Positions 5,300 through 52,354 of a stretch of DNA of 52,354 nucleotides are shown in pieces. Under the pieces are notes generated by a model that was given only the letters and a program-made list of their open reading frames with translations, made no database searches and had not been told where the DNA came from. The stretch spans positions 1 through 52,354 of the forward strand of contig JAUCBJ010000713.1 in the NCBI GenBank assembly GCA_032718475.1, written 5' to 3'. The position numbers and the translations under genes were made by a program. Position 1 is the stretch's first letter. Every line of letters begins with the position of its first letter. The DNA is from Nemertoderma westbladi (taxonomy: Eukaryota > Animalia > Xenacoelomorpha).

Positions 5300-7230
5300 G
5301 TCTCTCGTTCCCTCGTCTTGTGTAGCAACCATCAATTCGTTGTTCAAGTGATTTAGTCAGTGTCCAGGTCTCACCCCCGTATAAAAATACACTTTCCACT
5401 GTGGCTCGAAAGAACTTGGTCTTCAGGTGCCTGGAGAGTTCTGATTTCCAGATGGTATCCATTTTTGATAGAGCTACCCAAGCCTTTGCTTTCCTAACTT
5501 CTATGTCCTTTTTCGGTTTTAACTTTGTAGGCTATCTTAAGATCTTCTCTCTTACAAGTAACCTCAGAGTTTTGCCATGGCACATACTGTTTTCGTTTAG
5601 GTTTCTGGGGGATATGCCTCTTAGCTGATTCCTTGTGGGCTGTTATTATATTCTGGTATATTGAATCGGTGGATTGGTCTTCATCCATTGACTGAAGTGC
5701 TTCAAAGCGGTTTTGAACTTCTACTGTATAAGCATCCTTTACAGCATTGTCAGTTCTGAGTTTCTCCCAGTCATAGTTGATTTGCTTGCTTGTCCTGGGT
5801 TTGCTGGCTCTCAAACTGAGTCTGATCTCTGCAGTCACAATTCTGTGGTCCGAACCAATTAGGTTGAACGAGCTGTATGCCTCGCAGTACTCCTCTACGG
5901 GAGTCCATGCTGGGCTCTAACTGCAGAGGACACCAAATCTCTGGATGGCACATTCACAAGAATGCTACGCCGGGTTCATTGTGTCAAGTACAATGCACAC
6001 ATCTCCAACCAGACACTATATAACATTGGAGGTGTCTCATTGGTTCCCCCAAGCTTGACACTAGAACAAAATCGCCTCCGCTTTGCAGGACATTGCTTTC
6101 GCCGTGAGGACCAGCCAGCGCATAATCTTGTACTTTGGCAGCCTCATGGAGTGAGTAAGCATGGTGGACAGCCCATGACTTTCTTGAGACGCATCTTAAA
6201 GGAGACTGGCCTTAAAGATGCGGATGATCTAGCAAATGTCATGGGTGATAGGGAGTTGTGGCGGTGCAATTTTGTTGACAAGCCGGCACAGCATTCTTAA
6301 AAATGCAGCTGCAATGCAGCATGCCGATCCTAGTAGTAGTATGCCTCGCAGTTGATCATGCTATTTCTCCACTTTTTGTTTATAAGGATGTAATCCAGTT
6401 GTGCTTTGGTTCCATTAGGGTATTGAAAGGTCCATAGCTCTTCCCCTTACTCTTTTCGAATGTGTTGTTTGTTGGTATCAATTCACATTCTTCCATTAGG
6501 TCTAAGAGTAAGTACCAATTTCTGTTAGAACTGGTGTTATAGGTGTAACCCTTGATGTCTTCTGGGCCAATTTGCGCATTCAGGTCAACCGCAATGACTT
6601 TAACATTGTGTTTCGGGATGTCCTTAATAAGTCCAGTCAGTTCTTCATAAAACTTGACTGCTTGTTCTGGCTCTGATGCATTGGTTGGACTGTAGCAACA
6701 TATAACTGTTGTCTTGGGATTCCCATCAAATGTTGCGATCATATCCCTGGAATTTATAGATTCGATGTTGTTTAAGGTCTTAAGTGCAAATGGGCTTAGC
6801 AGAATTCCTACTCCACCAATTGATGCATTGGCCGAGTTTCTTACTGCTGAGCTTGTTACTAACGTCCATCCATTTCCAATGTCATTGTACTTCATGGCAG
6901 TGTCTTCATGACAAATCCGATGTTCTTGGATGCAGATGATGTCGATGTTATATTCCATTGCCAGAGCGACCATGTCACCCTGTTTGCTCTGTGCTTTCAG
7001 CGTGCGTGCGTTCATTGTAGCAATCTTTAGTGTCTTTTTACATTTCAACAGGTTGGTTCTTCTTTCTTCTCTGTCTTCTGTTCCAGTAGCCAACTTATCG
7101 ACCTCAGCCTGGTGTACCACGGAGGGACGCGGTCCTTGTTGACCCGGGCGACGACCGAGCCGGTATTTCTCCTGGAGGGTTCTCATACTCATATCTTTCA
7201 GTTGCGGGGTTAAACCGCTTGTGGTCGCAA
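5300..7230 (-). mobile_element. RTE-clade LINE remnant A (APE endonuclease plus internally deleted RT end), interrupted by a younger insertion
   Basis: APE motifs IATMNARTL, IICIQEHR, GGVGILLS, CYSPT, DLNAQIG. Linker ORF at 5494-5838. RT C-terminus FRATVESVFLYGGETWTLTK at 5274-5462. Confidence 0.85.
5889..6338 (+). mobile_element. 5'-truncated RTE LINE 3' end with target-site duplication
   Basis: Encodes RLRFAGHCFR...LVLWQP...DRELWR and ends in a (TAG)n tail. Flanked by the direct repeat gtatgcctcgcagt at 5875-5888 and 6339-6352. Confidence 0.9.
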
Positions 7231-7231
7231 C

Positions 7232-8810
7232 TCGTAGCATTCTTGTGAATGTGCCATCCAGAGATTTGGTGTCCTCAGCAGTTAGAGCCCAGCATGGACT
7301 CCCATAGAGGAGTACTGGAACTACTGCTGCTCTAAATAATCGGACCTTAAGTTTCCGATTAATTCTCGGTGACTTCCAAATCCTGGAAAGCCTATTCAAG
7401 GCTGCCCATGCCTTTCCCTTACGTATTCGAAGGTCCTCACCTGACTTCCGGATCCATGATCCCAGGTAACAGAAGTCGTCCACATGCTCAAGCATACCAT
7501 CCTTTGAGCTTATGCTCATCCGATCAGAGACTTGCTGAGGACTTTTAAAGTTAACTGTCAGAATTTTGGTCTTTCTGGAGTTAATAAAAAGACCAACACT
7601 AGAAGCAGCATGTTCTAATGAGCTGAGGAGCCGTTGGGGTCCCTCTAATGATTCTGAGAATACTCCAAAGTCATCAGCAAAGTCTAGATCAGTTAGGTAC
7701 TTGGCAGGATTTCCTCGACTTCTGGAGCCAGTAGGTGGAGTTACCATCACCCCATCATCATTATGATGATCTAAGGATATAGTAGAACATAGTCAACCAC
7801 AATAATGAACAAGAATGGTGCAAGTGTGTCTCCTTGGAGGACCCCCCATAACACTTCAAATGGTTCTGTGTCACCATCAACAGTAGACACAAATGTTGTC
7901 GAACCATCGTATACTGATCTGATTGCTGCAATAATTTCATCAGAAATCCCATATAATGAAAGTATGCTAAACATACGTGAGCGAGAGACTGAATCAAAGG
8001 CCTTGAAGAAGTCAACAAAGATAACAGCCAGATGCCTGTCTTTCTTTTTTGATAACTCTTCAATTATCCTTCTAAGTGCCAAAATGGGCTCCATGGTCCC
8101 ACGACCTTTACGGAACCCATTCTGATTTCCACGGAGCAGTCTCTCAATGGGATCCCTGATGCGATTTAATAGAATCCTATTGTATAGCTTTGCAGCAATC
8201 GAGATCAATGAGATTCCCCGAAAGGAACCATAGAGTGTTAGGTTGCCCTTCTTGGAAACTGGCACCAACTTATTTGTTTTCATTTCTTGTGGGACTCTTG
8301 TTGTTCGGTACATGTCTACTATGATGGGATAGATGAGCTTTAAACACTCAGCTATTTTAAAGACCTCAGGGGGAACACCATCTACTCCACTGGCACGATT
8401 GGTCTTAATGCTCTTTGCAGCAGCCTTCACTTCTGCAAAGGAGATATCGCCAATGGGAATATCTGGGAGTACAGACTCAGACACTTTTACTTCTATAAAG
8501 TTATCAGGCAATACCCTGTCATTATTGAGGAGCTTTTCAAAGTGGGCCTTCCAACCATTGAGGCGATCGGCTGGTGATTCAGCCTTAACCTTGGTGGTTA
8601 GTTGGCTTTTCCGCCCAGTAAGCAGATTGATCGATTTCCATGCCTGGGGTGATTGCCTGCTGTCGTCAGCATCATTGATGGCATCAACCTGTTGGTTTAT
8701 TAGCTCCTGTAGATTAACAGAGTACTGCCTGTGTGAACAGTGTTCAGGGACCTAGATGCAGCCTTAACTGCATTCTTGGCCGCTGTAGTCTGTTTGAATC
8801 GGGACATTCT
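7232..8810 (-). mobile_element. RTE-clade LINE remnant B (reverse transcriptase)
   Basis: RASGVDGVPPE, FRGISLISIAAKLYNRILLNRI, NQNGFRKGR, FVDFFKAFDSV, GVLQGDTLAPFLF, LDFADD, FCYLGS. Frameshift near 7760. Confidence 0.9.
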
Positions 8811-9444
8811 TTACTGCGTACCTATCTGGGTATCTATCCCAAATATTATCCATTACTGGTATTACGAAAGTTAATCAATCAGCTAGAAGAGTTGTATGTT
8901 TATTAAATTATTTATCTAAACGGAACATTGCTTTAAACATTGTATTTATTTTTACACTTTGAAGTGGTGCAGGTGCATAATGTAGTAAATGGTAGTGGTA
9001 GAGCGGCTATAGAGCACCCGCATCGATTGGAAGAACAGGCGCAGAACAATTACAAGATATATAGTTTTAAGGATCGAAATTGGGGCAATGGATGAGACGC
9101 CAGGATCCGGTATCAGTTTATCATTGATCGCCATCCAACCAAACTTGTTAACAGCCAACAGTGGAGGTGCAGGATCATCAGCAGCTCTCCACAAAAGAAC
9201 TTGCTTACGAGCCCGTTTTACATGTTGTACGGCGGCACTCTGTGTGGGGGGAAGGTTGAATACTTTAGGGTGTTGCTTCTTTGAAGTGAATAGCCTATGT
9301 CGAAGTTCATTCAGAGTATCCGATATGCCACCACCATAGATAGAGGTGTAGTTGTAAATTTACAGCACCCATTCCGCATAATTTAATGGATTTCAAATCT
9401 GACTTCGAAATGCGAGGAAAAGATATGTAATTTGGAACTCCTCC

Positions 9445-10705
9445 TGTAAAAGCTTCTGTGGGATATAACTGGCCCCTTTTGCTTCGCAATCCAGTTTCCC
9501 CCCAGGCGCTGGAATACTCTAAAAAGGTTCTCTAACTGTATATATATTCCCCTCGCCCGCAAGGTACCGTTACAGGTGTTTTAACGGACATAAAAGTCAT
9601 TCTGCTATATACGTGTTTTGGCGGACATGGTAAGGCAAAAAACCTGCAATGCACCAACTACCTTTCACAGCTTAGCCGTGATGATTCATATTACGACATC
9701 TAACAGCTGGTTGCTGACATGGAAACAGCCATTGGACGCATGGTTCTTTGTTTGGCTTGAGCCAATCAGAGCGATTTTTCCTGTCGACGTGTAGCTTTTC
9801 GGCCGATCATAAGGAGAGTGTTCAGTCTTACTGTTTTTACTTGATACTTTGTTGTTATTGCTGTCTAAGCCAGAAACACCGGCTCTAGAGCACCGGCTTT
9901 TTGGGAAGAACTCTAGTAAAACTGCTTAAATTATCGAAAGTATAAACTGTTACCAAACTAATCTCACTAATCGAACGAACTCACTAACTCACTTAATTTA
10001 ACTGCATTAATCATATTGTTTGTACTGTTATTTACCGTCAGTTATTAATTGTACCTATTTGTTGATAGAAATATTGCTCTTTGGATAATACGGATAAATC
10101 ACCCAAATTCCCAATTTTCTTGATACACTACAGGTTAGAGAGACCGGCTATACATAACAATTGCGATTTATATTAATGTGGTGTGTATTGAATCCAATGT
10201 TATTTAGCAGACCCTACGTGAGTCAATTGCTGCTCTCTTTATGTGTGATCAAATATACTGACGGTCGGCAGAATAGTGTGTATGATTGTGATTGGTAACA
10301 AAGTATTTCCTAAAGAATACGCTTTATACTTTAATCATAAGCGGTATCGTTGCGTTTTAGTATAAGTCTTAGTTCTGTTTAAATAGATAAAGCGCCACGT
10401 CCTAAAGGAACTGTTAATATTTCCCGAAAGCCAATAATATCTGTCAGGAATTAATTATTAACGATCTATCGAATAATACAGTAAGTTTACGCTGCAACCT
10501 TACACTGCAATAATAAAATTTAAGCATCCGAATTCAGCCTCCCGGGTGTAGATCCATCGGGTGAATGATCGCGCATGGGCTGACTTCGGCTAATGTTTTG
10601 TGTATTAGCATAAAATATTGTAGTATGCTAAATGTGTTTTAATTAACTAAAAGAAATATAAATTTTGGCAGGTTAAACTGCTAAAGGTCTTCAAAAGCGC
10701 GAACA
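9445..10705 (+). repeat. 5' LTR (TG...CA)
   Basis: Starts tgtaaaagcttc and ends gcgcgaaca. Contains a CCAAT box (~9763), an Inr-like ttcagt (9821) and AATAAA (~10512). Confidence 0.95.
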
Positions 10706-10718
10706 GTAACAGTTTATA
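10706..10718 (+). other. Candidate self-priming primer-binding site
   Basis: gtaacagtttata directly follows the LTR and is the exact reverse complement of tataaactgttac at 9941-9953. No TGG-type tRNA PBS is present (first TGG is ~57 nt downstream). Confidence 0.6.
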
Positions 10719-11054
10719 GTCTTATTGCAGTAGGCAATAAGGTTGCAAAATACCGTAGTGACTGGTAAAACTGAACCGGTACTTTGTAGGTCAGTAGGCC
10801 TAACTGTCATCACCGGTACCGGTACTGCTGTACAAGTACATTTAGTATTATTCGATTTGATTATTGTATACTGGTAGGTCTTAGTACTTAATCAGGGACT
10901 GCAGCCCTGAATTTTTATTGAGATTTTACCTATTTCTGTCGGTTTTATTTCCTAGTAGGCTAATATTGAGCAGAAGGCGTGTGACCCTGCTCAGATTGTT
11001 CAGATAATTGTAGGCTGAGCTGCTGTCTGACTGTTGTTGAGTTTGGAGAGATTA

Positions 11055-11575
11055 CGGCGTGTGTAGAGTTTGTCTGATAAAGTGCCGTTAGTAAGTTGGG
11101 GCAGCCATATGCGGTAAGGTCAATCCCCTCTTAAAGAATAAGTCGTACTACCGTGTTAGAACGCATACTAACTAACAGTTTCAGAGTCTGCATATACTGT
11201 AGTTTATCTAGGCTTGATCGTAGTCTGCCAGTGTTTTAGCCTGAGTTTGTTTGTGTGGTCTGTTCAGGTACCGTAATAGTTATTACTTAAATATTTGTAG
11301 GCTGGATTGTTGTCTAGCTATTTTTAGGTCTGAAGGGATTGCTGCGTGTGTAGAGTTGGTCTGATCAAGTGCCGTTAGTAAGTTGGGGCAGCCATAAGCG
11401 GTAAGGTCAATCCCCTCTTAAAGAGTAAGTCGTACTACCGTGTTAGAACGCATACTAACTAACAGTTTCAGAATCTGCACATACTGTAGTTTGTTTAGGC
11501 TTAATAGTAGTCTGCCAGCGTTTGGTTTGTATTTGTTTGAGTATTCTGTACGGGTAGCGTAATATTTATTATTCA
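11055..11575 (+). repeat. Tandem duplication with a ~287-bp period in the element leader
   Basis: The block gcgtgtgtagagtt...agtgccgttagtaagttggggcagccat...gtagtctgccag begins at 11057 and again at 11344. Confidence 0.9.
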
Positions 11576-12881
11576 GAGTTTATGCGATTATTCGCAACAT
11601 TCATGTCCCCAAGTTTATTCCTACAGTAATTGTGCTTGTTATACATACCGTTATAGTTAAACTAACCCCGGTACTACATCAGGGCTGCTTGGCGTAGGTA
11701 AAGACTGACGACTTTGTGCTTCGGTCACTCCAGCAGATGCCGTGGTTCTTTTAACTGTTCAAGTATATTTAACTACTGATTATTTGTTATACCGGTACTT
11801 GTACCTAATTTAGGGTTTAGTGTACAGTGCTTTCCGAAGTAATTAGTGTAGGCAGTATATTTGTGTTGTAAAGTGGTTGATAGGCACATTCGTTAGCTCT
11901 ATTAGCTTCTGGGTAGGAACAATCCGTGATACATAACGTAGTACCTATAGCGATACGGTTATAGGTCGTCAGGCGGTGGTATTTTCCTATCTGGACAGTA
12001 CAATATATTTACTACTTATTATTTCAAATACCGTAGTACCCTGTCCGTTGTAAGAACCAGAATTCTAACCCTTTGTTAGGCTGGTTTGTAGACTTCCTGT
12101 AAAATTACCCTAAAAATTTCGTACGTAATATTTTGTTGTGTTTAATTAGAGAATTAATCTCACCCGTATCGTAAGTAATTTGTAGTATTAAGTAACTTAG
12201 GTAAATTAGAATTATCAGTTTTAGTGTCAAATAAATAGCACTTCACTGAGAGGCGTTCAGCTTCTGTGTAGTGACTCCCCCAGAAATAATAACATTTATT
12301 TCAAATATTGACAAAAACCCATATAAACGGGTATATAAATATTATAAATCAAATCAAACGATTTATAAATAGTAGGCCTGTCATACAACAACTAGGTCTT
12401 CATATCAGTTGGACTACTGCTTAAATAACGGTAATAAAGTAAGTTAAAGTAACCAAGTAACCCTAAAATATTCAGAAATTCAATTATTCTAAAATAATTG
12501 ACATACCGGTATTTACCATAGGCTTATTATATTTATTCGATAAATTTAGGCTGAAATCATACCGGTACTCTGTAATTAATTCTAGTCCAGAATTATACTT
12601 ATATACTATAAGTGTAAGCTGTATACCGGTATTCACGATAGGCCTATTATATATTTATATATATCTGTGCTAAATTTATATACCGGTACCCTGTGACAAA
12701 CCTAGTTTACAATACTTATATATATATTATAAGCATACCGGTATTCTAATATATTATATATATATCACGCTACACTGAGCAGCAGTATCGGTAATTAATT
12801 ATTAGGCTAACAGTGATACTGAATTACTAGACTTACTTTAGCTGTATTTATAGCCGTAGGCATTCAACTGTGTAAACAAAC

Positions 12882-15800
12882 ATGTCTGACACAAAAAGGG
12901 CACTGTCAGATAGTCTTTTGGAAGGTGTTAGAATGAGTCGTCGACTTGGACAGTGTCTTGAAAGGAGAGAAGACAGAAAAGAAGCGGAAAGAAAAGTAGC
13001 AGCGACAGAAGCAGAAAGAAAAGCGGCAGAGGCAGTGGCAGAAGCAGAACGGAAGACGTCTGAAGCGACTATCCAACTAGAGCTGGAAAACCTTCAGGCG
13101 AAACAAGATTACTTGAAGAAACAAACCAGAAGACTACCTGTGCCCAGTAGGACTGTTCCCGAGTCCGAACCCGTCCTGGACGCCGAGCGAGGTATCAAGA
13201 ATTTATCACCCGTCGTCTCTCGCTCGCCCGCTACTACGTTGGCGACTCCCGCTTCGGCGGTTGAGTGGGTAGCTGAGGGACGACGGGAGATGGGTCTCCT
13301 GCTCGAGCAGCTGAGGGAACACTGTTTGTGCTCCTCTCAGCAGGTCAGGGAAATGGAAGAGACTGTTCAGCAGCTCAAGGGAACAGTAAGGGAAAGTAGG
13401 TTAGAGTTGCAAAAAGTGCAGCAAAGTATCGCACTAGAATGCGACAAATTAGTCAACCTACAAAAGGGAATACCAATAACCCCTGTAACAGTGTGTCAGC
13501 CTGTTAGGTCTGAAGTATTACATGCGCAAGGTGTGGAGCCTACACGCATCTATACTGCTAGTGAAGTAGAAACTCCTATAGCAAACCCTATTAAGGGTGA
13601 TTATACGCCTGTTGTTAATGACATTCCCAATAGACCTGATAATAATCCGAGAAATTTATATACCGATAACTCGATATTCAATAACACGATGGCCCAAGAA
13701 AGTTTTACGCGTCAAATGGCTAGAACCGAAGCCCGTCAAGCGGTAAAGGTTGGAGAGATAGTCAAGTTTAATGGAGATGAGATGAAATGGTTACCTTTTA
13801 ATGAATATTATAAAGATAACATACAGAACTCTGTGTTATCCAACGGAGAGAAACTTAGATTCCTCATCGAGTGCTTGGAAGGACCTCCCAAGTCAATGGC
13901 GTTAAAATTTATTGGACATCCAGATGGATTAAGACAAGTTTGGGATACACTAAACATCAGGTATGGTAATAGGAATAACATAGCTAGGTATTTATATGCG
14001 AAATTAATGGCCCCCCGAAAGTTTCTTAGCAGCGGGATTATAGAGTTTTCCGATGAGATTCAGGAGATCTGTAGACAACTAGATTGGTTAGGTAAGTCTC
14101 ATGAATACCAGAATTCTATGGTTGTAGGAGCCTTAGCATCTACTTTGCCCAAGGGTGGAGTAGGTACACGCTGGGACAAGAAGGTGTTATATACGATGGA
14201 ACAACAACAACGAGACCCTACCATGGCTGATCTCATGTCATTCTTGGATGGCGAAGTGAAATTACAACTCCTAAAGCAATCCAGAGAGAAAACACCGGAA
14301 AATAAGGTAAGTGAGAAACCCGTTTCTAGGAGAAGAGTAACACCGGTGTGTTATACTGATGACGGCGAAAGCCAAGCTTCTCAAGAAGAAGACAGCGGGA
14401 AAGACACCGAGAAATTTTACTATGTTAACAAGACCTCAAAGGACGTAAGTAAATCTAAAGCTCGAACCCATGACAGGAGAGAACAGGTTGCTAAGACTCC
14501 TCTTCAGTTTCCTAACAGAGTACACGGAAGAAAGCCCGAAGAAAGAACTAGAGTGCATAACGTCACCCAAAATAAGGTGAGTAACATTAAACCCAACTGT
14601 GCGCTGTGCGACGGGCCCCACCGTTTGAGTGCGTGTGCGGAATTCCTAAAGAAATCCTTGGTAGACAGACGTGAAGTCATGTGGGATAAGCGGTTATGCT
14701 ACAATTGTCTCAGACGCGGACACCAGCGGCGAACCTGTTACTCCGACATAAAGTGTGCAAAGTGCGGTGCGAAACATCACATCTTGTTACAAAGTGAATT
14801 CGAACGAAACAGCCCGAGTCAGGTAAGTGAGCCCAAATCACATGTCCAATTCAGTGATGTGAACGACACTGACCAAAGTTCTGAGTGGGAAGGATTCTAT
14901 ACGGACGAATTCTCCGACGCCAACGAATCCTGTTACCTAATAAATACCGCAGTGTATCGAGCACTTACTTACGAAAAGGACACCGACAATGAGTTCCCCC
15001 CAACTACCTTTGACAAACAACCATCTTGGAAAGTTCCAACTTCCAACATAGGAATAAGAGAATTTCCTGTAGTGCAAGTGAGAGTTCATGGTCTCTACAA
15101 GAGTTACATAGTGAACGCCCTACTTGACTCCGGCAGCACAGGAACATTCATCGATCAAGAACTAGCCGAAGATATCTTTGCTGGACAACCCAAGTTCCGG
15201 ACTAAATTGAATATGTCAGGAATTATGCAGGTTTGGAAATCTACCCTAACGGCAGATTACTATGTAGGTGAGTTGTCCACCCCCCAGGATAAATTAGGAG
15301 CACAAAGTATAAGGTCAGTAAAAATGGTGGCTATAAAGAACTTCGCTACTACCCAAGCAGACCTTTATAACTGGGACGAGGACGAGTGCATCCAACATCT
15401 TGAGATACCTCGATTCCAAACCGATTATCCTGGAGTGCAAATCCTCATCGGCCAAAACGCGCATGAGGCGCTCGAGACATTGGAGAAACGGCCTGCTCAA
15501 CCGCAGCCATTACAAACTTATGCGGTAAGAACTAGAGTAGGTTGGTACTTTACTGGCCCTTCCCGCAGAACTCTTGAAGAAAGATTGCCACAAGACCGGC
15601 TACTTCAAGTAAAGGATTGGGAAGAGGGGAGCAGTGAAGTGGACGAACCCACTGAGGTAACACCATACTCCTCAGATAATGATGATATTAACTCCAATGT
15701 AGATCAATGGAGACATTGCCTTGGGACGATTAATCCAGCCGACATCGCTTCCAGGGGAGCAACTCCTCAAGAACTGATAGATACTCCAGGCTGGTTAGGT

Positions 15801-16031
15801 GGATCCGACTCCTTAAGTAAAGAAGAAGAAGAATGGCCTCCTCATCTTACCACGGCAGAGAGTAGACAGGCCAAGGGAGCGGAGAAACTAACACAACAAC
15901 TCAATCGCCCAGCTGGTCGTTTATGTTTACTGGAAAGAGACCGAAAACTGTCCGGAAACTATGGAAGGCAAGATACTCTTCCTACGACCACTTCCCTAAT
16001 CCGACAAATATCTAGGGACTCTATAACGTAA
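12882..16031 (+). CDS. BEL/Pao gag-protease polyprotein with vestigial pol fragments (1049 aa)
   Basis: N-terminal coiled coil, DUF1759-like gag core (KFNGDEMKWLPF...EKLRFLIECLEG), three zinc knuckles (CALCDGPHRLSAC, CYNCLRRGHQRRTC, CAKCGAKHHILL) and protease ALLDSGS...ILIG...TRVGW. Followed only by WRHCLGTINPADIASRG and NRPAGRLCLLE. No YxDD or DDE motif. Confidence 0.92.
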   Translation: MSDTKRALSDSLLEGVRMSRRLGQCLERREDRKEAERKVAATEAERKAAEAVAEAERKTSEATIQLELENLQAKQDYLKKQTRRLPVPSRTVPESEPVLDAERGIKNLSPVVSRSPATTLATPASAVEWVAEGRREMGLLLEQLREHCLCSSQQVREMEETVQQLKGTVRESRLELQKVQQSIALECDKLVNLQKGIPITPVTVCQPVRSEVLHAQGVEPTRIYTASEVETPIANPIKGDYTPVVNDIPNRPDNNPRNLYTDNSIFNNTMAQESFTRQMARTEARQAVKVGEIVKFNGDEMKWLPFNEYYKDNIQNSVLSNGEKLRFLIECLEGPPKSMALKFIGHPDGLRQVWDTLNIRYGNRNNIARYLYAKLMAPRKFLSSGIIEFSDEIQEICRQLDWLGKSHEYQNSMVVGALASTLPKGGVGTRWDKKVLYTMEQQQRDPTMADLMSFLDGEVKLQLLKQSREKTPENKVSEKPVSRRRVTPVCYTDDGESQASQEEDSGKDTEKFYYVNKTSKDVSKSKARTHDRREQVAKTPLQFPNRVHGRKPEERTRVHNVTQNKVSNIKPNCALCDGPHRLSACAEFLKKSLVDRREVMWDKRLCYNCLRRGHQRRTCYSDIKCAKCGAKHHILLQSEFERNSPSQVSEPKSHVQFSDVNDTDQSSEWEGFYTDEFSDANESCYLINTAVYRALTYEKDTDNEFPPTTFDKQPSWKVPTSNIGIREFPVVQVRVHGLYKSYIVNALLDSGSTGTFIDQELAEDIFAGQPKFRTKLNMSGIMQVWKSTLTADYYVGELSTPQDKLGAQSIRSVKMVAIKNFATTQADLYNWDEDECIQHLEIPRFQTDYPGVQILIGQNAHEALETLEKRPAQPQPLQTYAVRTRVGWYFTGPSRRTLEERLPQDRLLQVKDWEEGSSEVDEPTEVTPYSSDNDDINSNVDQWRHCLGTINPADIASRGATPQELIDTPGWLGGSDSLSKEEEEWPPHLTTAESRQAKGAEKLTQQLNRPAGRLCLLERDRKLSGNYGRQDTLPTTTSLIRQISRDSIT

Positions 16032-16574
16032 TAACATATGGAGTGGGCGTGTGACTATATCATTTTATATTTGTTTTTATTTTATATTTATGTATGTATT
16101 ATTATGTAATTTTATTATAATCGTTTTCTTTAATTTTATTTAGTAGAATGTTATTTTAGAATATTTGGTAAATTAGTGCAATATATTAGTGTTTATTACG
16201 TATTTAATTACTTACAATATATTTAGTGCGACGGCAAGAAGTAATTATTTTCTCTTTCCTTACTGTCCGTATTATATTATAAATGCGAGACTATAGTAAG
16301 ATGACATGTCAGTACTTCTTAAAGTACAATAAAGCCACTACTATATTTAAGTATTATTGGTAGGCAGAGTATTAGGAATGCAAAGTTCAGATCCTCGTGT
16401 CTCGGCTAAACCAAGCTCTGGGTAGACCTTGGAAACGACTTGCCTCTTCACACTGACATTGCTTCGTGCGATATTGCTCTTCTATCTTATAACAAATAAT
16501 ACATATAGTAGCGTGATGTCCCTCTAACAGTAGCGTAAATCGCAAATAAATCTGTTAAACTTTTGACCATCTGT

Positions 16575-16850
16575 AATTCTAGTCGATTAAGATATCGTGG
16601 CACCCACCGATATACTTGAAAGACAAATTCTAGAATCAGTGGTTAACGTCCCCAGACAAGTTCTGGAATAAATCGGTGCCCATCCTAAATATTAATTTAA
16701 TATTTATTAAAATCTGTAAAATTCAGATCCGTTAACAATTCTAGTCGATTAAGATATCGTAGCACTTACCGATACTCTTAAAAGACAAATTTCATAGAAT
16801 TAAGGATCCTATGTCCCCAGACCTGCTCTGGAATCAAATTGTATCAATTT
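16575..16850 (+). repeat. Diverged ~110-bp direct repeat pair (period 162)
   Basis: aattctagtcgattaagatatcgt...aagacaaatt...gtccccagac...tctggaat starts at 16575 and again at 16737. Confidence 0.85.
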
Positions 16851-17462
16851 AACATCAAATAATAAAATTCACGGGAATAAATTTAAATTCATATTCGAAT
16901 GAATTTCATAAATTGTCATTTGTGCAATTTATAACATTCCCAAAATTCCAGTAATTAATAGATCATGGGAGCGGAGATTCATATTGAGTGTACTAGAGTG
17001 CGAGAATCTCCAATATATAGTCAATAGCCGATAAAATTTATAAAATCATGCATAAAGAGGGTATTGACAACTAAAGAATTACTATTAAATAACATCCCAG
17101 ATCTGTATGCATGAGAATTACCCTAATTCTACCGCTAGTTTTCCATAATGTCACCATGGCAACACCCACGCTAGAATTAGAAGCAAGTTAAAGGAACAAT
17201 AAAAAGCTTGCCCCATTGCGTAGCATAAGAGTATATATAGCGCACTATTAGTATCCAAGGATACATAGTAATAACGTGACATTCTGGAAGACACTGACTA
17301 ACGGACAAATGGCATGCATGTGTGCAGTAAGCAATGATTGTATGGAATTTGTGCGTTTATAGGTGAATGTTACTACTAAAGTGTGTTTACAGTAGCTAAT
17401 CGCAATTGTAAAATAGCCCTAACTCTACCGAGATAACCTCAAGTGGATTCAAGCCTTTGGGA

Positions 17463-17607
17463 CGGACAGTGGTGGGACTTGTGCCGGTTATCGTTGTCGT
17501 GCTGTTGCTACATGTTGGCGTAAACACCGCGACAACGGTACATCGGCGCTGAGAAACCCACTGTCCGGGGGCAAAAAGCCTAGTAGGCAGCGACGCCCGC
17601 TTGCCTA
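17463..17607 (+). other. Predicted long GC-rich RNA hairpin plus small hairpin
   Basis: cggacagtgg (17463-72) pairs with ccactgtccg (17558-67). Inner stems are gtgccggt/atcggcgc and tcgttgtcgtg/cgcgacaacgg. Second stem taggcagcg/cgcttgccta at 17584-17607. Confidence 0.75.
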
Positions 17608-17650
17608 AAATATTAGCTTATATTGATATTAACAAACTCAGATAGCAGAT

Positions 17651-18049
17651 ATGACGGAATTGATAGAAGATGACCTTGGTATTAGAGAGCGATATACTCT
17701 ACCTTTACAAGCGTTTGTGGATAGCTTGATACGCGGTGAAGCCGATCCGACTATTACTGAGGACGATGGTCGTTATATCGAACCGCCGATGTCCCAGGAA
17801 CAACTTACGCGTGAAGCGGACTATAGAAAATTCACCGCTCGCTATACGAATCGCAATGGTACGTATATGGACTTCCTAACTACCGGCCATCCTATCGATC
17901 TACATGATACGGACGATGTATACACCGAAAGGGAAATGGTTCTATTTAAATATCATACCCAGCGGAGTCGTAACGATAAACCGAGAATAGATCACGAAAA
18001 TTATATTCGTAACAGACTGGGAAGACGAACCCATATGTTTAGAATCTGA
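17651..18049 (+). CDS. Extra ORF X1 of the LTR element (132 aa, unknown function)
   Basis: ATG start, coding-like composition, no recognised motif. Overlaps the X2 reading frame. Confidence 0.6.
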   Translation: MTELIEDDLGIRERYTLPLQAFVDSLIRGEADPTITEDDGRYIEPPMSQEQLTREADYRKFTARYTNRNGTYMDFLTTGHPIDLHDTDDVYTEREMVLFKYHTQRSRNDKPRIDHENYIRNRLGRRTHMFRI

Positions 18050-19100
18050 AGAGATTCAGCCCCCCACGTCTCGGAGTAGCGATAGCGACTACATATTGGA
18101 ATGGTATCAAGGTCCACAGTGTCTCACTGCGTACGATTATCGCCATGCCAACTATGTTTCTAGACAACGTTGTCGGCTGTGCGCATCGAGAGACCATATT
18201 ACGTCTATGGACACCAACGATCTTTGTTCCTATTTCCACGAGCAACCGTCGATGGAAATCTATTGTGCATATTGTCGGCTTAATAATTTGCACATTTTTG
18301 CTGTCTGCCCCCAATTTATGACTCAATGCCATCATTGTCAATTAAAAGGACACGCCAGCTTTGATTGTCCCTTTAACCATGATTTAGAGAGCGTAGATGA
18401 AATGATTGTACTACGTTATATCAGAGCTTGGGAAGCGAACGCTGATTTACATTGTGATTCACGCCATCGCTATTATCCTGGACGCGCCTACGAAGGAGTT
18501 TATGCGTTCCATCCATATTTGTTTGCCTCCGTCGAGCAGAAATCGCGCCTATCAAGTTACGAGCTACTGAAGCGCGTCGGAGAATGTATTTCAACCAAAT
18601 TCGTACGCAAATTTCTCAGGAGTGTTAATCCTAGCGACCTTCATTCCTATAACTTAATCAATCATATCCGTCAGGATCCGGACTATGGAGAATTGTTTGT
18701 TAACTCACACCCTGAGTTACAGGAAGTATATCGACGGCCTTACGAATACCGAGCCCGCGAACGCGAGTTGGAAAGAACCATTAAACCAAGGAAGTTTCTA
18801 ACTGCCTATGGTCCACCCACGGCCCTCGTTCAGACCACTCGTAAAGGACCCGTAAGAGCGGCTGTCTTGAAACGAGCTCTCAAAGCCGTTAGACCCCTCT
18901 CCCCGGACGTTGATGTCAATCAACCCGGTACTTCGACCGGCGGATATACCGATCGCAATCCCATACCTTCTGATGCAATCATATTGCACCCTTCACCCAG
19001 GAGTTATAGCCCTCCTCGTAAAGTGGCTCGCCCCAAAGAGAAAAGGACTCTTGCTAGCTTTAAAAAACTGCGTAAACGCCGTCCGCGCAAGAAAGACTAA
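17991..19100 (+). CDS. Extra ORF X2: multi Cys/His zinc-finger protein with a basic C-terminus
   Basis: Frame is open from 17991 (ORF track start is TTG at 18096). Motifs CRLCASRDH, CAYCRLNNLHIFAVC and CHHCQLKGHASFDC (CCHC). Ends in an NLS-like KKLRKRRPRKKD. True start uncertain. Confidence 0.75.
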   Translation: MTKIIFVTDWEDEPICLESEEIQPPTSRSSDSDYILEWYQGPQCLTAYDYRHANYVSRQRCRLCASRDHITSMDTNDLCSYFHEQPSMEIYCAYCRLNNLHIFAVCPQFMTQCHHCQLKGHASFDCPFNHDLESVDEMIVLRYIRAWEANADLHCDSRHRYYPGRAYEGVYAFHPYLFASVEQKSRLSSYELLKRVGECISTKFVRKFLRSVNPSDLHSYNLINHIRQDPDYGELFVNSHPELQEVYRRPYEYRARERELERTIKPRKFLTAYGPPTALVQTTRKGPVRAAVLKRALKAVRPLSPDVDVNQPGTSTGGYTDRNPIPSDAIILHPSPRSYSPPRKVARPKEKRTLASFKKLRKRRPRKKD

Positions 19101-19170
19101 CTGTTTAGAGTATTTACGTATATTAGAAACTGTGATTTTTGTATATTTATAGACTCAAATCCCATTTTCT

Positions 19171-19178
19171 GGGAGCGG
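19171..19178 (+). other. Polypurine-tract-like site
   Basis: gggagcgg immediately precedes the TG of the 3' LTR. Confidence 0.7.
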
Positions 19179-20439
19179 TGTAAAAGCTTCTGTGGGATAT
19201 AACTGGCCCCTTTTGCTTCGCAATCCAGTTTCCCCCCAGGCGCTGGAATACTCTAAAAAGGTTCTCTAACTGTATATATATTCCCCTCGCCCGCAAGGTA
19301 CCGTTACAGGTGTTTTAACGGACATAAAAGTCATTCTGCTATATACGTGTTTTGGCGGACATGGTAAGGCAAAAAACCTGCAATGCACCAACTACCTTTC
19401 ACAGCTTAGCCGTGATGATTCATATTACGACATCTAACAGCTGGTTGCTGACATGGAAACAGCCATTGGACGCATGGTTCTTTGTTTGGCTTGAGCCAAT
19501 CAGAGCGATTTTTCCTGTCGACGTGTAGCTTTTCGGCCGATCATAAGGAGAGTGTTCAGTCTTACTGTTTTTACTTGATACTTTGTTGTTATTGCTGTCT
19601 AAGCCAGAAACACCGGCTCTAGAGCACCGGCTTTTTGGGAAGAACTCTAGTAAAACTGCTTAAATTATCGAAAGTATAAACTGTTACCAAACTAATCTCA
19701 CTAATCGAACGAACTCACTAACTCACTTAATTTAACTGCATTAATCATATTGTTTGTACTGTTATTTACCGTCAGTTATTAATTGTACCTATTTGTTGAT
19801 AGAAATATTGCTCTTTGGATAATACGGATAAATCACCCAAATTCCCAATTTTCTTGATACACTACAGGTTAGAGAGACCGGCTATACATAACAATTGCGA
19901 TTTATATTAATGTGGTGTGTATTGAATCCAATGTTATTTAGCAGACCCTACGTGAGTCAATTGCTGCTCTCTTTATGTGTGATCAAATATACTGACGGTC
20001 GGCAGAATAGTGTGTATGATTGTGATTGGTAACAAAGTATTTCCTAAAGAATACGCTTTATACTTTAATCATAAGCGGTATCGTTGCGTTTTAGTATAAG
20101 TCTTAGTTCTGTTTAAATAGATAAAGCGCCACGTCCTAAAGGAACTGTTAATATTTCCCGAAAGCCAATAATATCTGTCAGGAATTAATTATTAACGATC
20201 TATCGAATAATACAGTAAGTTTACGCTGCAACCTTACACTGCAATAATAAAATTTAAGCATCCGAATTCAGCCTCCCGGGTGTAGATCCATCGGGTGAAT
20301 GATCGCGCATGGGCTGACTTCGGCTAATGTTTTGTGTATTAGCATAAAATATTGTAGTATGCTAAATGTGTTTTAATTAACTAAAAGACATATAAATTTT
20401 GGCAGGTTAAACTGCTAAAGGTCTTCAAAAGCGCGAATA
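19179..20439 (+). repeat. 3' LTR (TG...TA)
   Basis: Same length as the 5' LTR. Only two differences were spotted by eye: aagaaatata/aagacatata and terminal CA->TA. Confidence 0.95.
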
Positions 20440-20766
20440 CCTCCAGAGCTCCCTGTGGACGTCTGCAGTAACTCCATAGCTGTTGAGTGGGAGTCACGAA
20501 GACCATTTGGGGTAAATACATTTAGGTCAAAGTTATCAATCCACGCGCTAATTGGTTGATGGTTTTTGTTAAAATCATCCAAAAATCGCCAGATGAAAAA
20601 CCACGTTCTCCTGTAAATTTTGCAGCAGACTTTCTAAAACGTAGCACTTCATCATAGCTGGCAATATATCCTTGTGAATGTAAGAAATCTATAAGTTCCC
20701 GGCTTCCAAATAGATAATGAAGCTTTATAGCCATCCCAAGTGTTGTCTGGTTATACACTCCACTTA

Positions 20767-23468: not shown

Positions 23469-23927
23469 TTATCGTTTTCTTGAGTTCTTTGAACGGTTGC
23501 GTTTTCTTCCCCTAGACTTTGATTGCACACACAGACAGTTACTTATTTCTACCTTGCTGGTCCCTGATAAAGTTTTTCTTATCCCGGCTTCCGGACTATC
23601 ACTTTCACGCCGATAAGCTTTGGGTGTGCAGTAACCTGTACTTAGTGCAACCATCCATTTGTAGACTTGATTGAAGTGCCTTTTCGAGAGATGCGGTCCG
23701 CAAACTCTATACATAAATCCCGCAAACTGTGTGTAATCCCCCTTGAGGTCCAAGTAGCGTTTTATGAGCTGATTCGTCTTTGTTATTCCCTTCCTTTCCA
23801 TCCGCTGGCAGAAAATCGGACCAATACCAGGTACCTTGATGAGTTTGGTTTTGTAAATCTTAGACATCCCTGTTGCTCCATAATCCAACTCCTTTTTCGT
23901 GGATTTGTTTCGCTTTGTTCTACCCAT
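23469..23927 (-). CDS. Barrier-to-autointegration factor (BAF)-like protein with basic extensions, 152 aa, intronless
   Basis: VPGIGPIFCQRMERKGITKTNQLIKRYLDLKGDYTQFAGFMYRVCG aligns by eye with BANF1 [46 protein letters not shown]. Confidence 0.75.
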   Translation of the reverse strand: MGRTKRNKSTKKELDYGATGMSKIYKTKLIKVPGIGPIFCQRMERKGITKTNQLIKRYLDLKGDYTQFAGFMYRVCGPHLSKRHFNQVYKWMVALSTGYCTPKAYRRESDSPEAGIRKTLSGTSKVEISNCLCVQSKSRGRKRNRSKNSRKR

Positions 23928-24653: not shown

Positions 24654-26423
24654 TCAGTGCATTGAATATGTGCTGGACACAAAGTCCACACATCTATGAA
24701 CATCATCATCAGGCCCCTGGTCTCTATTACCTGCCCCTCTATGTATATCGCTGAGAACATCAGGGAGTGGTTTTCCTTTCGTTTCCGGCAGAAACAGAAC
24801 ACCGATTGCGGCGGCCAAACACAAAACTCCGTAAAGGATAGGTGGAAGCGCTCGCCAACTGTGTCCGATGCTAATCAATGGGATTATCGCTGAAGCTATT
24901 AGCGATAATATCATAGAAGTCGACATCATTCTGGAACGGACCTCGGTCGGATAAAGTTCTATCGAATACGTAACCACCATGGCCAATCCGCAACTAATAC
25001 CAGTTTTTCCAGCCATAGCAACCGTTGTTTTTACCCAACCACCTGCGATATCGTCGGGGATCCAGGCAGTGGATAAACAAGAAATTCCAGTAAAAATCAA
25101 AGTTCCGCACATTGAAGGCTTCCGTCCCAGTCCGTTTTGCAAGAAAAATCCTATCGCGGAGCCGACAATTTCAGTTGCGCCAGAAATTATGTTCGTAACA
25201 AAAAAATCTGTAGACAGCGCTGATACTCCTAGGACAAGCCCATACCATGTAACTGAAAGGGCAACCCAAACAAGGCACATAATAAGAATACGTTTCATTA
25301 ATTCAAAATGATACAAAATCTTGTTCAAAATCAAATTGTTGTGAATTACTTTTGGTTTGCCTATCGAAGAGCTTTCTCTATATTGCGACGATGTTAAATA
25401 TCTAGTAATACCTCCTATAGTATCATCACCTATTTGTTTATTATTAATGCGAGCAATTTTCTGTATAACATTCAACGCTTGCTTCCATTTCCCTGTGGTT
25501 GCCAACCATCTTGGCGATTCAGGCCAGACAACATAGAAGAACAGACACATGAAAGGTAATAGACACTGAGATAAGTGAAAATAATACCATGGTAACCGTC
25601 GGAATATGTACGAACAGACAGTGGATAGCATCATGCCTACTCCAATAAATGCTTCAAAAGAGACACCAATAAAGGTTCTGTACTCATAGCCAACGAGTTC
25701 CATGGCCAGGATAGTCCCAATCATAAGGGGGGCTGAATAACTCATTCCCAAAACTATTCGTTGAAATATAAAATAATGTATATTTCCCGGGAAAATAAAC
25801 ATGAAGGATTGACCCACACTTTGCAACAAGAATGCGAGAAATATGGCTTTCTTCCGTCCCCATATATCTGAAATCGCGCTGAATAATCCAGCTCCTGGTA
25901 TTATTGCGAGAATAAATGCCGTTTTCGCAAATTGAAACTCTACATCCTTTTCACAAACGAAATTAAATTCCATGAGGTAGGTGTTTGTGAAGACGGACTG
26001 GTCAAATGACCAGCCATGACGACATTTGATTCGATCCTTATTTTCTACCTGAACATAATTGTTATTTTCAACATTATAGTCGTACATTAGGCAAGATTCT
26101 AAAACACCATCACCATCTTTGGGAATGAATTCTTCAATGTTTATTGATTGATTCTCTCCAAGTTTATCAACAATATACGAAACATCGCAGTGGTAACCGG
26201 TGTGCGCGCTAAGAAACACCATTTCCATGATCAGTAGTGTTGGAATTGACGCACATAATAACACAATAGTGCAATAAACAACAACCCATTGATAGCAGCC
26301 AAATGCACCTATGAGAGGCCAAATATCATCATAAGTGTGAATATGTTTATTTTCATCAACGAATTTATTATTATCTGATCCATTTCCACCTAATTGTGTA
26401 TCGCCATAATTAATTGTTTTCAT
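24654..26423 (-). CDS. SLC22 / organic cation transporter family MFS protein, intronless
   Basis: IGAFGCYQ, Cys-containing first loop (C..GWSFD), SDIWGRKK, ELVG..YR, PESPRWL, ELYPTEVRS, LPETKGKPLP. First ATG at 26423 (ORF track extends to a TTG at 26450). Confidence 0.93.
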   Translation of the reverse strand: MKTINYGDTQLGGNGSDNNKFVDENKHIHTYDDIWPLIGAFGCYQWVVVYCTIVLLCASIPTLLIMEMVFLSAHTGYHCDVSYIVDKLGENQSINIEEFIPKDGDGVLESCLMYDYNVENNNYVQVENKDRIKCRHGWSFDQSVFTNTYLMEFNFVCEKDVEFQFAKTAFILAIIPGAGLFSAISDIWGRKKAIFLAFLLQSVGQSFMFIFPGNIHYFIFQRIVLGMSYSAPLMIGTILAMELVGYEYRTFIGVSFEAFIGVGMMLSTVCSYIFRRLPWYYFHLSQCLLPFMCLFFYVVWPESPRWLATTGKWKQALNVIQKIARINNKQIGDDTIGGITRYLTSSQYRESSSIGKPKVIHNNLILNKILYHFELMKRILIMCLVWVALSVTWYGLVLGVSALSTDFFVTNIISGATEIVGSAIGFFLQNGLGRKPSMCGTLIFTGISCLSTAWIPDDIAGGWVKTTVAMAGKTGISCGLAMVVTYSIELYPTEVRSRMMSTSMILSLIASAIIPLISIGHSWRALPPILYGVLCLAAAIGVLFLPETKGKPLPDVLSDIHRGAGNRDQGPDDDVHRCVDFVSSTYSMH

Positions 26424-27419: not shown

Positions 27420-30400
27420 ATGGCTAAATATCCCACCCCAACGTTTTTGGATGTTAATGCAGAAGACCTTGCACTTGAATTTGGCGAATGGCGACAAGCC
27501 TTTGAGTTCTGGGCAGATGCGATAGACTTGCGTGGTGAGGGACAAAATAGACAAAAGCAGGTTGGGGCCCTTATGACCTGCATCGGTAAACAAGCTCAAA
27601 AGATCGCACTTCAGAATTTCAGCTATACAGATGACAGACCACGAACCCTCGAGAATTTATTGGCAGACTCTTCTCAGCTTATTTTGCTCCCCGGCGAAAT
27701 TTGCTTGTGATGAGACACCGCTTTATGTGTCGGCGACAACAATCTGGGGAATCTTGTGCCGAATATTTTACTACCCTCCGGCAGTTGGCGGGTCACTGCG
27801 ACCTTGATAGAGAGACACCTGAAACACGAATAAGGGATACCTTCATATGTGGCATCCGGGATGATGAGTTGCGGCGTCAACTCCTCCAGCAACCTTCTGA
27901 TTCCACTATTACTGACATTAGGAACCTGGCGGTTGCTTATGAAGCTGCCACATCTGGGCATAAAGAGTTGAGTACAGAACAGAAAAAAGAGTATTTTATA
28001 CTCCAGCATCCATTAGTGGTGATGTTTTGGCTGTCTCAAGGTCATTTTCTCCCCATCGTGCCACCACTGGTAAGTATTATGCTGCTGCTCCACTGGTTCG
28101 TGAACGTGGTATGGATGTAGCTAGGAATCTACCACAACAACCCAGTCAACCTTTGCCTAATTTTGTTCGTTCATGTCGTTTCTGTGGTGGTAGTCACCAA
28201 AAAGGCCACTGTCCAGCATATAATTCCTTTTGCCAAGATTGCGGAGTTCGTCACCACTTCCGTAATTCCCCAATTTGTAAATTTATTGTTTCAGTTTCTA
28301 GACAAGGCTTAGATCGGTATACACAACAGACTATGCGACATTCCACTGGTAGAGTTCACCAGGTTGAACACTTTCCCTCTGACCTCTCTGTGGTGGAATT
28401 AGATGAACCCTACGAATCCGATGGTGAGGTAACTGAATCAAGTTTATCCTATTATGATGTCAACACAGTTAACCTATATAAAATGGTAAATTCCACCCCC
28501 AGTCAACTTATTGAAAAAAACTTATGAAAATTGGAAAATATCACTTTTCGTATCAGGTCCTACATCTGGTCAGAATATCATCTTTCTTGTTGACACAGGA
28601 ACTTATCACTCTATTGTTCCAAGCAAATTTATTGGACCCAGCATAATTGAACCCTTGCAGGGTGAGTTGCTCGGAGGATTTATGTCTTCATCTTCACTGC
28701 CTATTATTGGCAAGGCAACAGTTCGATTGGCATTTGGCAAATGTGAGACAACATCTACCATCTTTGTTGCCAAGAATGCACCATTCGCTTTGCTTGGCCA
28801 AAGGGATATTGAAGATTTACAATTAGTCAGTCGAAACTTCAGTGAAAATAAACTGTATCCTTCAGGTAGGGAAATAGAAAACACTGCAGGTGCTAGTCCT
28901 CTAAACATTGTCAATGCATTCTTACCTCCAATGGATTCACCTGAAATTGAAATTGTACTTAAGCCTGGAATAGTTCCACTTCAACAGCCCCCGTGGCGCA
29001 TTCCCTTCGGCATAATCGAGGAAGTTAAAAGTGAGAGCGCTAAACTTTGCGATGAAGGTGTTATCGTTAAAGTTCCTAACGATGATCCACCCAGTGAGTG
29101 GGTTAGTCCCATGGTGATCACACGCAAACCCACTGGGAAATTGAGGTTATGTCTAGATCTACGTGCTTTAAACAAAGCTGCGGTTAGGACCCGTGTAATG
29201 ATTCCTACACCTGAGGAACTATTTGCTAAAGTGGAAGGTAGCAACTATTTCTCTAAATTGGATGCTTACTCAGGCTTCCATCAATTATGGCCCACTGAGA
29301 AATCATCCAGACTAACAACATTCGAATTGCCATTCGGTACATTTCGTTATATTCGCTTACCATTTGGTGTTTCCTGTGCACCAGAGAAATATCAACAGAC
29401 AATGGTTGATGTTATCCATGATATTAATGGTGCCATTGTCCTTGAAGATGACATCCTTATATACAGTGCAACACGTGAAGGCCATGATCAAATTTTGATG
29501 AAGGTTAAGCAACGTTGCATTGATCGCAATATTAAACTTAATGTTGATAAATGTGAAATTGGCAAAACAGAAATTACTTACTTGGGTCATGTCTTGTCTT
29601 CATCTGGACTGAAACCAGATCCAAAGAAAGTTGAAGCGATTTCAGCACTCCCCCCCACCAACAACTACTGCAGAATGTCGTAGATTTCTGGGAATGGCTA
29701 CCTATATCTGGCTAAATTTGTACCCAATTTCAGCACTATTTCATCACCATTACGACAATTATTATGAGGGAATGTTCTGTTTTCATGGACATCCACTTGT
29801 GACTCAGCCTTTCAGAAGATAAAATCTTTACTATGTGACTCCCCAGTATTGAAATATTACAATGTCAACCATGAAACCATGGTCCAATGTGATGCCTCTC
29901 CATATGGCCTTGGCACAGCTCTTCTCCAATGTGATCCATAAACCAAGCAAACATGGCCAGTAGCATTTGCTAGTAGATCACTAACATCTGCTGAGCAGAG
30001 GTACTCCCAGATAAAAGGGAGACATTAGCTATTGCCTATGGTGTTTTGAAATATAAACAATATCTTCTAGGACTCCATTTCACAGTCCTATCAGACCATA
30101 AACCCTTAAAGTCGATTTTCCTAAACCCATTAGATGAGTGCCCACTTCGGATTACCCGTTTTCTCATTCTTCTACAGCCATATTCATTCACAGTTGAATT
30201 TATTACTGAGTGGAAAGTCAAATCTTCTTGCAGACACATTGTCTCGTGCTCCAATCCCAGGTCCTAATGAGCAGCCAGGAAACCAACAGGCCTTGAACTT
30301 TGATCCCTTTGTTAATGTCATTCTCGAATCACGTTTTGTCAATATTCACCCAGTAGCTCAGGAAACTGGAATATGTCCAGAATTGTCCCCACTGGTTGAT

Positions 30401-52030: not shown

Positions 52031-52354
52031 ACCGTGGTCTATCTATGTAAGTAGCATCGTGGTTGTTTCGAGCGGGTCTTGCTCTAATTATTACCAATTT
52101 GCACTGTTTTGGGGGTTTCTTAGTGTGGTGTGTGTGAGTTTCGCGTACGCTGTATTATCAATACCGCACTCACACTCTCTATATTATATTCCTTTCTAGG
52201 TGTGTTTTTGTCGTTCAAATTCGCCTAGATGTTACCTTCTTCGAACTTTTCCCTATCTGAATACTGTAAACGCTTACGATGTACCTCTGAGAAAAAATAT
52301 CTACCCTATCCAACGCTACAATACAGCATGCGCACTGCATAGATTCTAATATAT

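Follow-up and report, generated by a model that had tools for sequence, protein, structure and literature searches.

The plant TR-GAG and GAG/PROT-only elements are non-autonomous long terminal repeat (LTR) retrotransposons that carry gag/protease genes only (PMC4350172; PMC13570524). In the available text of these sources, they have LTRs, a polypurine tract (PPT), a 5-bp target-site duplication (TSD), an open gag (gag/protease in sugar beet), no reverse transcriptase (RT) or integrase, and signs of amplification; they derive from Copia or Gypsy elements, are typically shorter than 4 kb, have one open reading frame (ORF), and often no partner has been found. Barley BARE-2 likewise forms a two-component system with an autonomous partner, but it lacks Gag and keeps pol (PMC4350172, in part). 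In the mouse, the in-frame-deleted fusion protein of IAP 1Δ1 is described as acting in cis (available text of PMC6466679). Here we analyse an element of a different superfamily, Bel/Pao, found in a 52,354-nucleotide (nt) stretch of Nemertoderma westbladi DNA (contig JAUCBJ010000713.1, positions 1 to 52,354, hereafter the window), which keeps gag and protease in one open frame and has lost RT, most of RNase H and integrase.

This element has in common with the plant families all the features listed above, from the LTRs to the signs of amplification. Unlike TR-GAG, it is a Bel/Pao element of 11 kb, with two pol remnants fused in frame, a second (putatively spliced) gene and a candidate partner. 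Against the TR-GAG definition, the gag ORF without RT, RNase H or integrase is present, whereas size (10,995 bp), number of ORFs (further ORFs exist) and superfamily (a Bel/Pao Gag) fall outside it. The original prediction from the sequence had drawn an analogy with both TR-GAG and BARE-2: the first half holds for the gag ORF, and BARE-2 has the opposite structure (PMC4350172, in part). With IAP 1Δ1, as far as described in the text available, the element shares an in-frame internal deletion, a single fused ORF and success despite being non-autonomous, and by analogy its Gag may also act in cis.

No gag-protease-only or self-primed Bel/Pao family was found in the literature searched (subscription papers fell mostly outside its coverage, the slash in BEL/Pao was not matched, and supplements were not included). 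The first silkworm Pao element itself was reportedly described without RNase H and integrase. Given this limited coverage, the absence of such a Bel/Pao case from print is not established. The words 'primer' and 'non-autonomous' do not occur in the available text of a Bel/Pao survey (PMC3118150), nor 'tRNA' and 'PBS' in that of the Sinbad paper (PMC554778); the accessible parts of PMC3601003, PMC3286476, PMC8220671 and PMC13524379 served as context.

A gag-protease frame with two pol remnants

The frame lies within a Bel/Pao LTR retrotransposon at 9445-20439. It had been predicted to run without a stop from protease to an RNase H-end motif and an integrase tail, and both the ORF list and a protein profile bear this out. 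Its parts are as follows.

12882-16031 (+): gag-protease ORF, 1049 amino acids (aa), stop-free, with a vestigial pol tail (ORF list and profile)
13767-14153 (+): capsid region, DUF1759, residues 296-424 (Pfam, E 1.1e-13; the model fits the PNMA2 capsid fold)
14598-14783 (+): three Bel/Pao-type zinc knuckles, residues 573-634 (motif and alignment)
15060-15566 (+): aspartic protease, catalytic D749 in LLDSGS (alignment; the model fits retroviral proteases)
15689-15698 (+): junction 1 zone, about 512 codons gone, RT and most of RNase H (profile, motif spacing, contigs)
15699-15887 (+): what is left of RNase H's C-terminus and the linker, WRH..NPAD..WP (profile, contigs)
15888-15893 (+): junction 2 zone, about 487 codons gone, integrase (profile, motif spacing, contigs)
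15894-16031 (+): integrase C-terminal tail motif (RPAGRLCLLE at 15906-15935), 31 more residues and the stop (position, contig ends)

All 42 homologs found were Bel/Pao polyproteins, 41 of them with the Pao family PF05380, and the nearest full-length proteins are just 20-27% identical across gag-protease. DUF1759, three zinc knuckles and then protease follow each other as in a Bel/Pao Gag. The alignment of 42 sequences shows no variation at the catalytic aspartate or at the knuckle cysteines, and a structure model of residues 277-903, confident for capsid, knuckle and protease, resembles the PNMA2 capsid and retroviral proteases.

The missing part was delimited with a profile of 1750 positions built from 36 full-length Bel/Pao polyproteins. 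Residues 151-898 of the ORF match profile positions 48-618, residues 938-997 match 1170-1229, and there is no other match; RT, RNase H core and integrase were also absent from the rest of the element when this profile was run in six frames. Motif spacing gives the same picture. The distance from GW to NPAD is 64 aa here vs 556-647 in relatives (median 576; measurable in 29 of 36), and that from NPAD to the tail is 58 aa vs 514-767 (median 545; 24 of 36), hence about 512 and 487 missing residues at junctions 1 and 2. At least two large deletions, as originally proposed, thus separate three parts that still stand in the order protease, RNase H end, integrase tail within one ORF, with RT and the integrase core gone.

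Of the two remnants, the WRH..NPAD stretch shares 60% identity with protein P0030 across 45 aa (E 2e-15). Its earlier label, 'post-RNase H', calls for caution: NPAD is commonly regarded as the final conserved motif within RNase H. The tail motif, with 8 of 12 matching residues, is not significant alone (E 0.16), and is taken as real because of its position and because contigs enter the sequence at 15894. An exact look-up of seven window proteins in the protein collection returned none (0/7). A shorter-protein search with residues 860-1049 gave no relative among 458 candidates, nor was any found in the metagenome scan with the ORF (0/55) or the viral-contig scan with the alignment (0/55).

The ends and the leader of the element are as follows:

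9440-9444: left TSD, CCTCC (LTR-end comparison)
9445-10705 (+): 5' LTR, 1261 bp, TG...CA (LTR-pair comparison)
10706-12881 (+): leader, 2176 nt, with an internal duplication spaced 287 bp, nine ACCGGT palindromes and four ATG (sequence inspection)
19171-19178 (+): PPT, short, adjoining the 3' LTR (sequence inspection)
19179-20439 (+): 3' LTR, 1261 bp, TG...TA (LTR-pair comparison)
20440-20444: right TSD, CCTCC (LTR-end comparison)

The LTRs differ at 2 of 1261 places (0.16%), namely 10655 and the next-to-last base (TA in the 3' LTR, CA in the 5' LTR), and CCTCC stands on both flanks; the two or so differences and perfect TSD first reported are thus correct. TG..CA ends, PPT and 5-bp TSD are those of Bel/Pao elements, though the 3' LTR ends in TA. 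No DNA similarity was found between the element and 75 fetched related loci or the remainder of the window. The leader palindromes might be dimerisation or factor-binding sites; a further 23 instances of the same motif lie in the 31.9 kb to the right of the element.

Junctions shared by diverged copies

The element was compared with contigs of four public runs: X1, X3 and X4 come from three studies of organism A, and X5 from organism B; X1 may be the source of the window. Briefly, a junction was counted as crossed when a contig extended at least 31 letters on each side of it. Statements on individual contigs concern the 32 pieces listed, with a further 5,249 beyond the list, and those on loose ends concern 24 of 166 rows; contig depth was not taken as copy number or expression. 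A total of 97,574 contigs in X1 and 23,928 in X3 fall on the element, covering 30 of 30 bins with identities from above 99% to under 90%: the family of elements related to 9445-20439 is large.

Two pieces cross junction 1 (X4 record 19, X5 record 26) and two cross junction 2 (X4 records 22 and 23). These four pieces diverge by 10.8-14% from the window copy. In addition, place 15888, inside junction 2, is covered at 29-31 letters from the contig end by 38 X1 and 18 X3 contigs, and at 24 letters by 5 X5 contigs. Both deletions are therefore common to diverged copies and not private to this locus. Since the LTRs are only 0.16% apart, vs 10.8-14% for the junction-crossing contigs, the deletions are far older than the insertion in the window: what was reverse-transcribed and inserted there was an element that had lost these parts before. 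Deletions confined to this locus were looked for as the result that would speak against a mobile lineage; the diverged contigs crossing one or the other junction, together with the candidate pol-bearing form seen in the same runs, exclude this. The shared junctions support the initial proposal of a mobilised non-autonomous lineage as opposed to a decaying copy, and lend indirect support to many copies with different TSDs, as expected of TR-GAG. Three points weigh on the other side: contigs of X1 and X3 are short, and none of the listed pieces from these runs reaches 31 letters on both sides (108/18 and 29/71 at best); the two junctions are never bridged, nor the whole element covered, by one and the same contig; and the contigs compared show no further copy at a target site of its own.

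A partner keeping pol would be expected to leave the sequence at the two junctions, and this is how a group of contigs behaves. Loose ends flank both junctions on all four sides: behind 15676-15688 (X1, X3, X5), before 15699-15700 (X1, X3, X5), behind 15887 (X3, X4, X5) and before 15894 (X3, X5). These places bracket the two gaps derived, independently, from the protein profile. Several of the contigs run on into unlike sequence for 190-300 letters (X3 records 10, 11 and 13, X4 record 21, X5 record 27). One such contig in X3 has a depth of 4562, next to 4629 and 4671 for near-bridging pieces and 10-40 for the faintest pieces, and the run-on form is thus probably repeated too. By count, run-on contigs are a minority in the DNA-labelled runs (at junction 2 in X3, 4 loose vs 18 crossing), and contigs with at least 20 unlike run-on letters make up 0% in X1 and 1% in X3. 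Deleted and run-on forms reach similar depth in X4 (960 and 839), and both are found under two organism labels. We thus regard the run-on contigs as a candidate pol-bearing partner. It should be kept in mind that their run-on sequence is called pol by its position, and that no close pol-bearing relative was found in the protein, shorter-protein and metagenome searches.

We also asked what differences between copies say about constraint. The difference lists hold the best-supported rows, 40 of 2070 and 40 of 164, and mix deleted with pol-bearing copies. Among these, 26 of 55 ORF differences are synonymous, vs 27.8% expected (p 0.0016), and none creates a stop. Within folded regions the figure is 6 out of 8 (p 0.007), and non-synonymous differences lie mostly in disordered linkers. 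None of the 12 listed indels (out of 268) is inside ORFs, which fill 47% of the stretch; non-coding A+T-rich DNA is indel-prone anyway. Joints of known size inside the ORF are all in frame (42, 66 and 84 nt, and 165 nt swapped for 168). Selection is visible family-wide and is not significant on the branch of the window copy. On that branch, defined by places where at least 90% of X1 depth differs, 7 of 17 differences are synonymous (p 0.17). For the two pol remnants the figure is a borderline 10 of 21 (p 0.06). These two values, and the mixed nature of the lists, count against constraint on the deleted form as such. It had been stressed at the outset that both deletions left the frame open. 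They did, but two in-frame deletions are a 1-in-9 chance, so selection is not required and this fact alone is no evidence of it.

Possible self-priming and a putatively spliced 3' region

Two features not noted in the original prediction are a self-complementary primer site and a putatively spliced 3' gene. In Tf1, the primer site base-pairs with the first 11 bases, and the primer is released by RNase H (PMC7175516, available text). A comparable arrangement is present here:

9941-9953 (+): candidate self-primer, reverse-complementary without mismatch to the 13 nt after the 5' LTR, predicting a transcript start at about 9939-9943
10706-10718 (+): primer-binding position, no TGG, pairs with 9941-9953 (complement search)
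10292-10300 (+): second, shorter complement of the candidate primer, rival pairing in folds past about 10750 (RNA folding)

As in Tf1 and sushi elements, the site directly after the LTR pairs with a stretch inside the LTR (11 nt in Tf1, 13 nt here). Self-priming is reported there for Ty3/gypsy and proposed for some plant Copia elements (PMC7175516, PMC6317226, both in part), whereas the present element is Bel/Pao, its loop would be about 750 nt, it has no RNase H of its own, and its primer is a candidate read from sequence alone. The TGG of a tRNA-type primer site was not found after the 5' LTR. A published rule for self-primers, at least 10 nt of complement starting 0-5 nt past the LTR (PMC6317226, in part), agrees with the 13 nt at offset 0 without TGG. 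A complement of this length was reached by 6 of 20,000 simulated LTRs and by 0 of 8,420 internal positions (p ~3e-4).

We lean towards a primer derived by cleavage from the 5' end of the element's own RNA. The complement abuts the LTR end exactly, with the right polarity, and the splice donor described below follows the predicted start by about 190 nt, as a first exon needs. It is, however, quite possible that the complement arose by chance or belongs to an ordinary leader structure, priming being then ensured by a tRNA fragment or another small RNA. The predicted fold varies with the chosen 3' end: all 9 folds that end by 10740 favour the primer helix (P ~1), which drops to P 0.00-0.22 in 12 of 12 folds ending at 10760 or later, where its arm pairs with 10292-10300. 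The complement test was also chosen after the absence of TGG had been noticed, and tRNA priming was assessed by TGG only. Distant relatives argue in the same direction. Of the 75 related loci, LTR pairs were looked for in 49, and the LTR end was usable in 11 (loci were dropped for short flanks, no pair or an end imposed by the contig; L064, ending at a contig end, was kept). Only one of the 11, L008, agrees with the self-primer rule, the other ten having no comparable complement; two have a TGG site and eight have neither.

The eight with neither TGG nor a 10-nt self-complement are L005, L049, L050, L062, L064, L070, L004 and L019. L008 is an older Bel/Pao element (LTRs 74% alike), in which an 11-nt LTR complement at 914-925 starts 3 nt past the apparent LTR end (8 of 3000 simulations). 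No tRNA gene was found in the window, and an Rfam search gave a single match, at chance level.

For the 3' region and the joint leading to it, the following features were delimited.

10133-10135 (+): splice donor, exon end 10133, GT 10134-10135 (X4 joints, sequence context)
17431-17433 (+): splice acceptor, AG 17431-17432, exon from 17433 (X4 joints, sequence context)
17651-18049 (+): 3' ORF a, 132 aa, no recognised relative (ORF list)
17991-19100 (+): 3' ORF b, 369 aa from stop to stop, first ATG at 18207, with three CxxC..H knuckles and a basic C-terminus

In two X4 contigs, sequence of the LTR is joined to that of the 3' region, from 10125 to 17431 and from 10133 to 17450, with 7 and 19 letters between, and both joints are compatible with one intron from GT at 10134 to AG at 17432. 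These joints are likely products of RNA splicing, and a spliced RNA without the primer site should not be copied via the LTR route. Joint depth is 0 in X1, X3 and X5. It speaks against splicing that X4 is labelled 'DNA?', and that the sides of the joints are short, at 22-23 letters.

The two ORFs, which overlap by 59 nt in different frames, are in env position. Roo, and Bel/Pao elements of mosquitoes, similarly carry an extra gene between pol and the 3' LTR, in the form of an env-like ORF (available text of PMC13524379); in contrast, the 3' ORFs of the window element are zinc-knuckle and basic, with no family match and no glycoprotein. In ORF a, 4 of 5 listed differences are synonymous (p 0.02), and no Pfam or Atlas match was found. 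For ORF b, the sole match among 1.84 billion representatives, P0044, was rejected as a repeat-rich MORN protein. The Atlas gave only sub-0.9 zinc-knuckle/AIR2-like leads with low recognition, the single-sequence fold was uninformative (pLDDT 36), and no match was found among the 75 related loci. Two of these loci have ORFs of their own downstream of pol, L011 (5397-6294, 299 codons) and L070 (7879-8986, 369 codons, past its 3' LTR).

The rest of the window contains a broken Ty3/gypsy-type pol at 27710-31852 (RVT_1, integrase H2C2 and rve, split across several ORFs), and RVT_1-bearing fragments at 6380-8313 (-) and 50380-51119, an inverted copy 81-90% similar lying near the right end. Other ORFs have a BAF-like domain (23469-23927, -), encode an intronless MFS/sugar transporter of 589 aa (24654-26423, -) or a WD40 protein of 328 aa with 54% G+C (45977-46963, +); a 45-nt tandem repeat array at 51322-52075 yields two overlapping ORFs.

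Proposed mobilisation in trans and its alternatives

We consider it probable that the deleted element is translated, that its Gag prefers its own RNA and co-assembles with the Gag-Pol of a partner, and that partner RT, RNase H and integrase complete the cycle. The enzymes would likely be borrowed in trans from pol-bearing relatives in the same genome. A full-length RNA beginning near 9940 would be translated into Gag-protease, which likely loads that RNA into particles built jointly with partner Gag-Pol. Packaging of its own RNA would explain why the frame was kept open although Gag could be borrowed. In these particles, partner RT and RNase H would start on the primer cut from the 5' end of the RNA, and partner integrase would insert the DNA, giving the 5-bp duplication. 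The spliced RNA would encode the 3' zinc-knuckle protein or proteins, most likely an RNA-binding accessory factor.

One alternative, a single decaying copy whose deletions arose after insertion or from the assembly, may draw on an assembly uncheckable with reads, on the TA end of the 3' LTR and on the 5' LTR letter at 10655, which is almost private (699,447 of 699,564 of X1 depth reads another letter). It is contradicted by the junctions found in contigs of four runs, up to 14% diverged from the window copy, and is very improbable. The lineage might instead be mobile while borrowing all its proteins, Gag included, its frame being a passenger that has simply escaped decay so far or that recombination with pol-bearing copies renews. 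The 1-in-9 chance of two in-frame deletions, the non-significant branch of the window copy and the inclusion of partner copies in the family-wide differences are all in line with this. Still, 1049 codons have remained stop-free despite the 11-14% divergence of junction-bearing copies, non-synonymous changes fall mainly in disordered linkers, listed indels avoid ORFs and joints of known size keep the frame, which makes a passenger frame decidedly unlikely.

The gag-protease element may also do more than live off its partner, and help it by supplying surplus Gag in a two-part system. Relatives carry gag to integrase as one protein, so that a gag-protease element could supply additional capsid. 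Both forms have similar X4 depth and persist under two organism labels, and Tf1, a self-primed element, reduces its integrase by degradation (PMC7175516, in part). Bel/Pao relatives evidently spread with a single ORF, however, and depth is not copy number; we hold such help to be unlikely. It is compatible with mobilisation in trans and is not an exclusive rival to it. Pushed further, this would give a segmented Bel/Pao retroelement, in which an old gag-protease element of high copy number and one bearing pol occupy a common particle, to which the former brings surplus capsid and the latter the enzymes, both self-primed without tRNA, and a spliced zinc-knuckle accessory gene in env position protects or sorts the RNA, a speculative and rather doubtful scheme.

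Under the reading we prefer, mobilisation in trans with the element's own Gag, a strategy of gag-only parasitic retrotransposons mostly described in plants extends to an animal Bel/Pao family, in a deleted form that appears old, abundant and still inserting. Families of this kind would be overlooked by RT-based classification pipelines. If the primer signature is true, Bel/Pao would join Gypsy and Copia in having tRNA-independent members, and if splicing is, the orphan 3' gene would count as an accessory gene of a non-envelope kind. The pair formed by this element and its candidate partner provides a natural case for testing why Gag is retained by a non-autonomous element, for cis packaging or as surplus capsid for a single-ORF partner.

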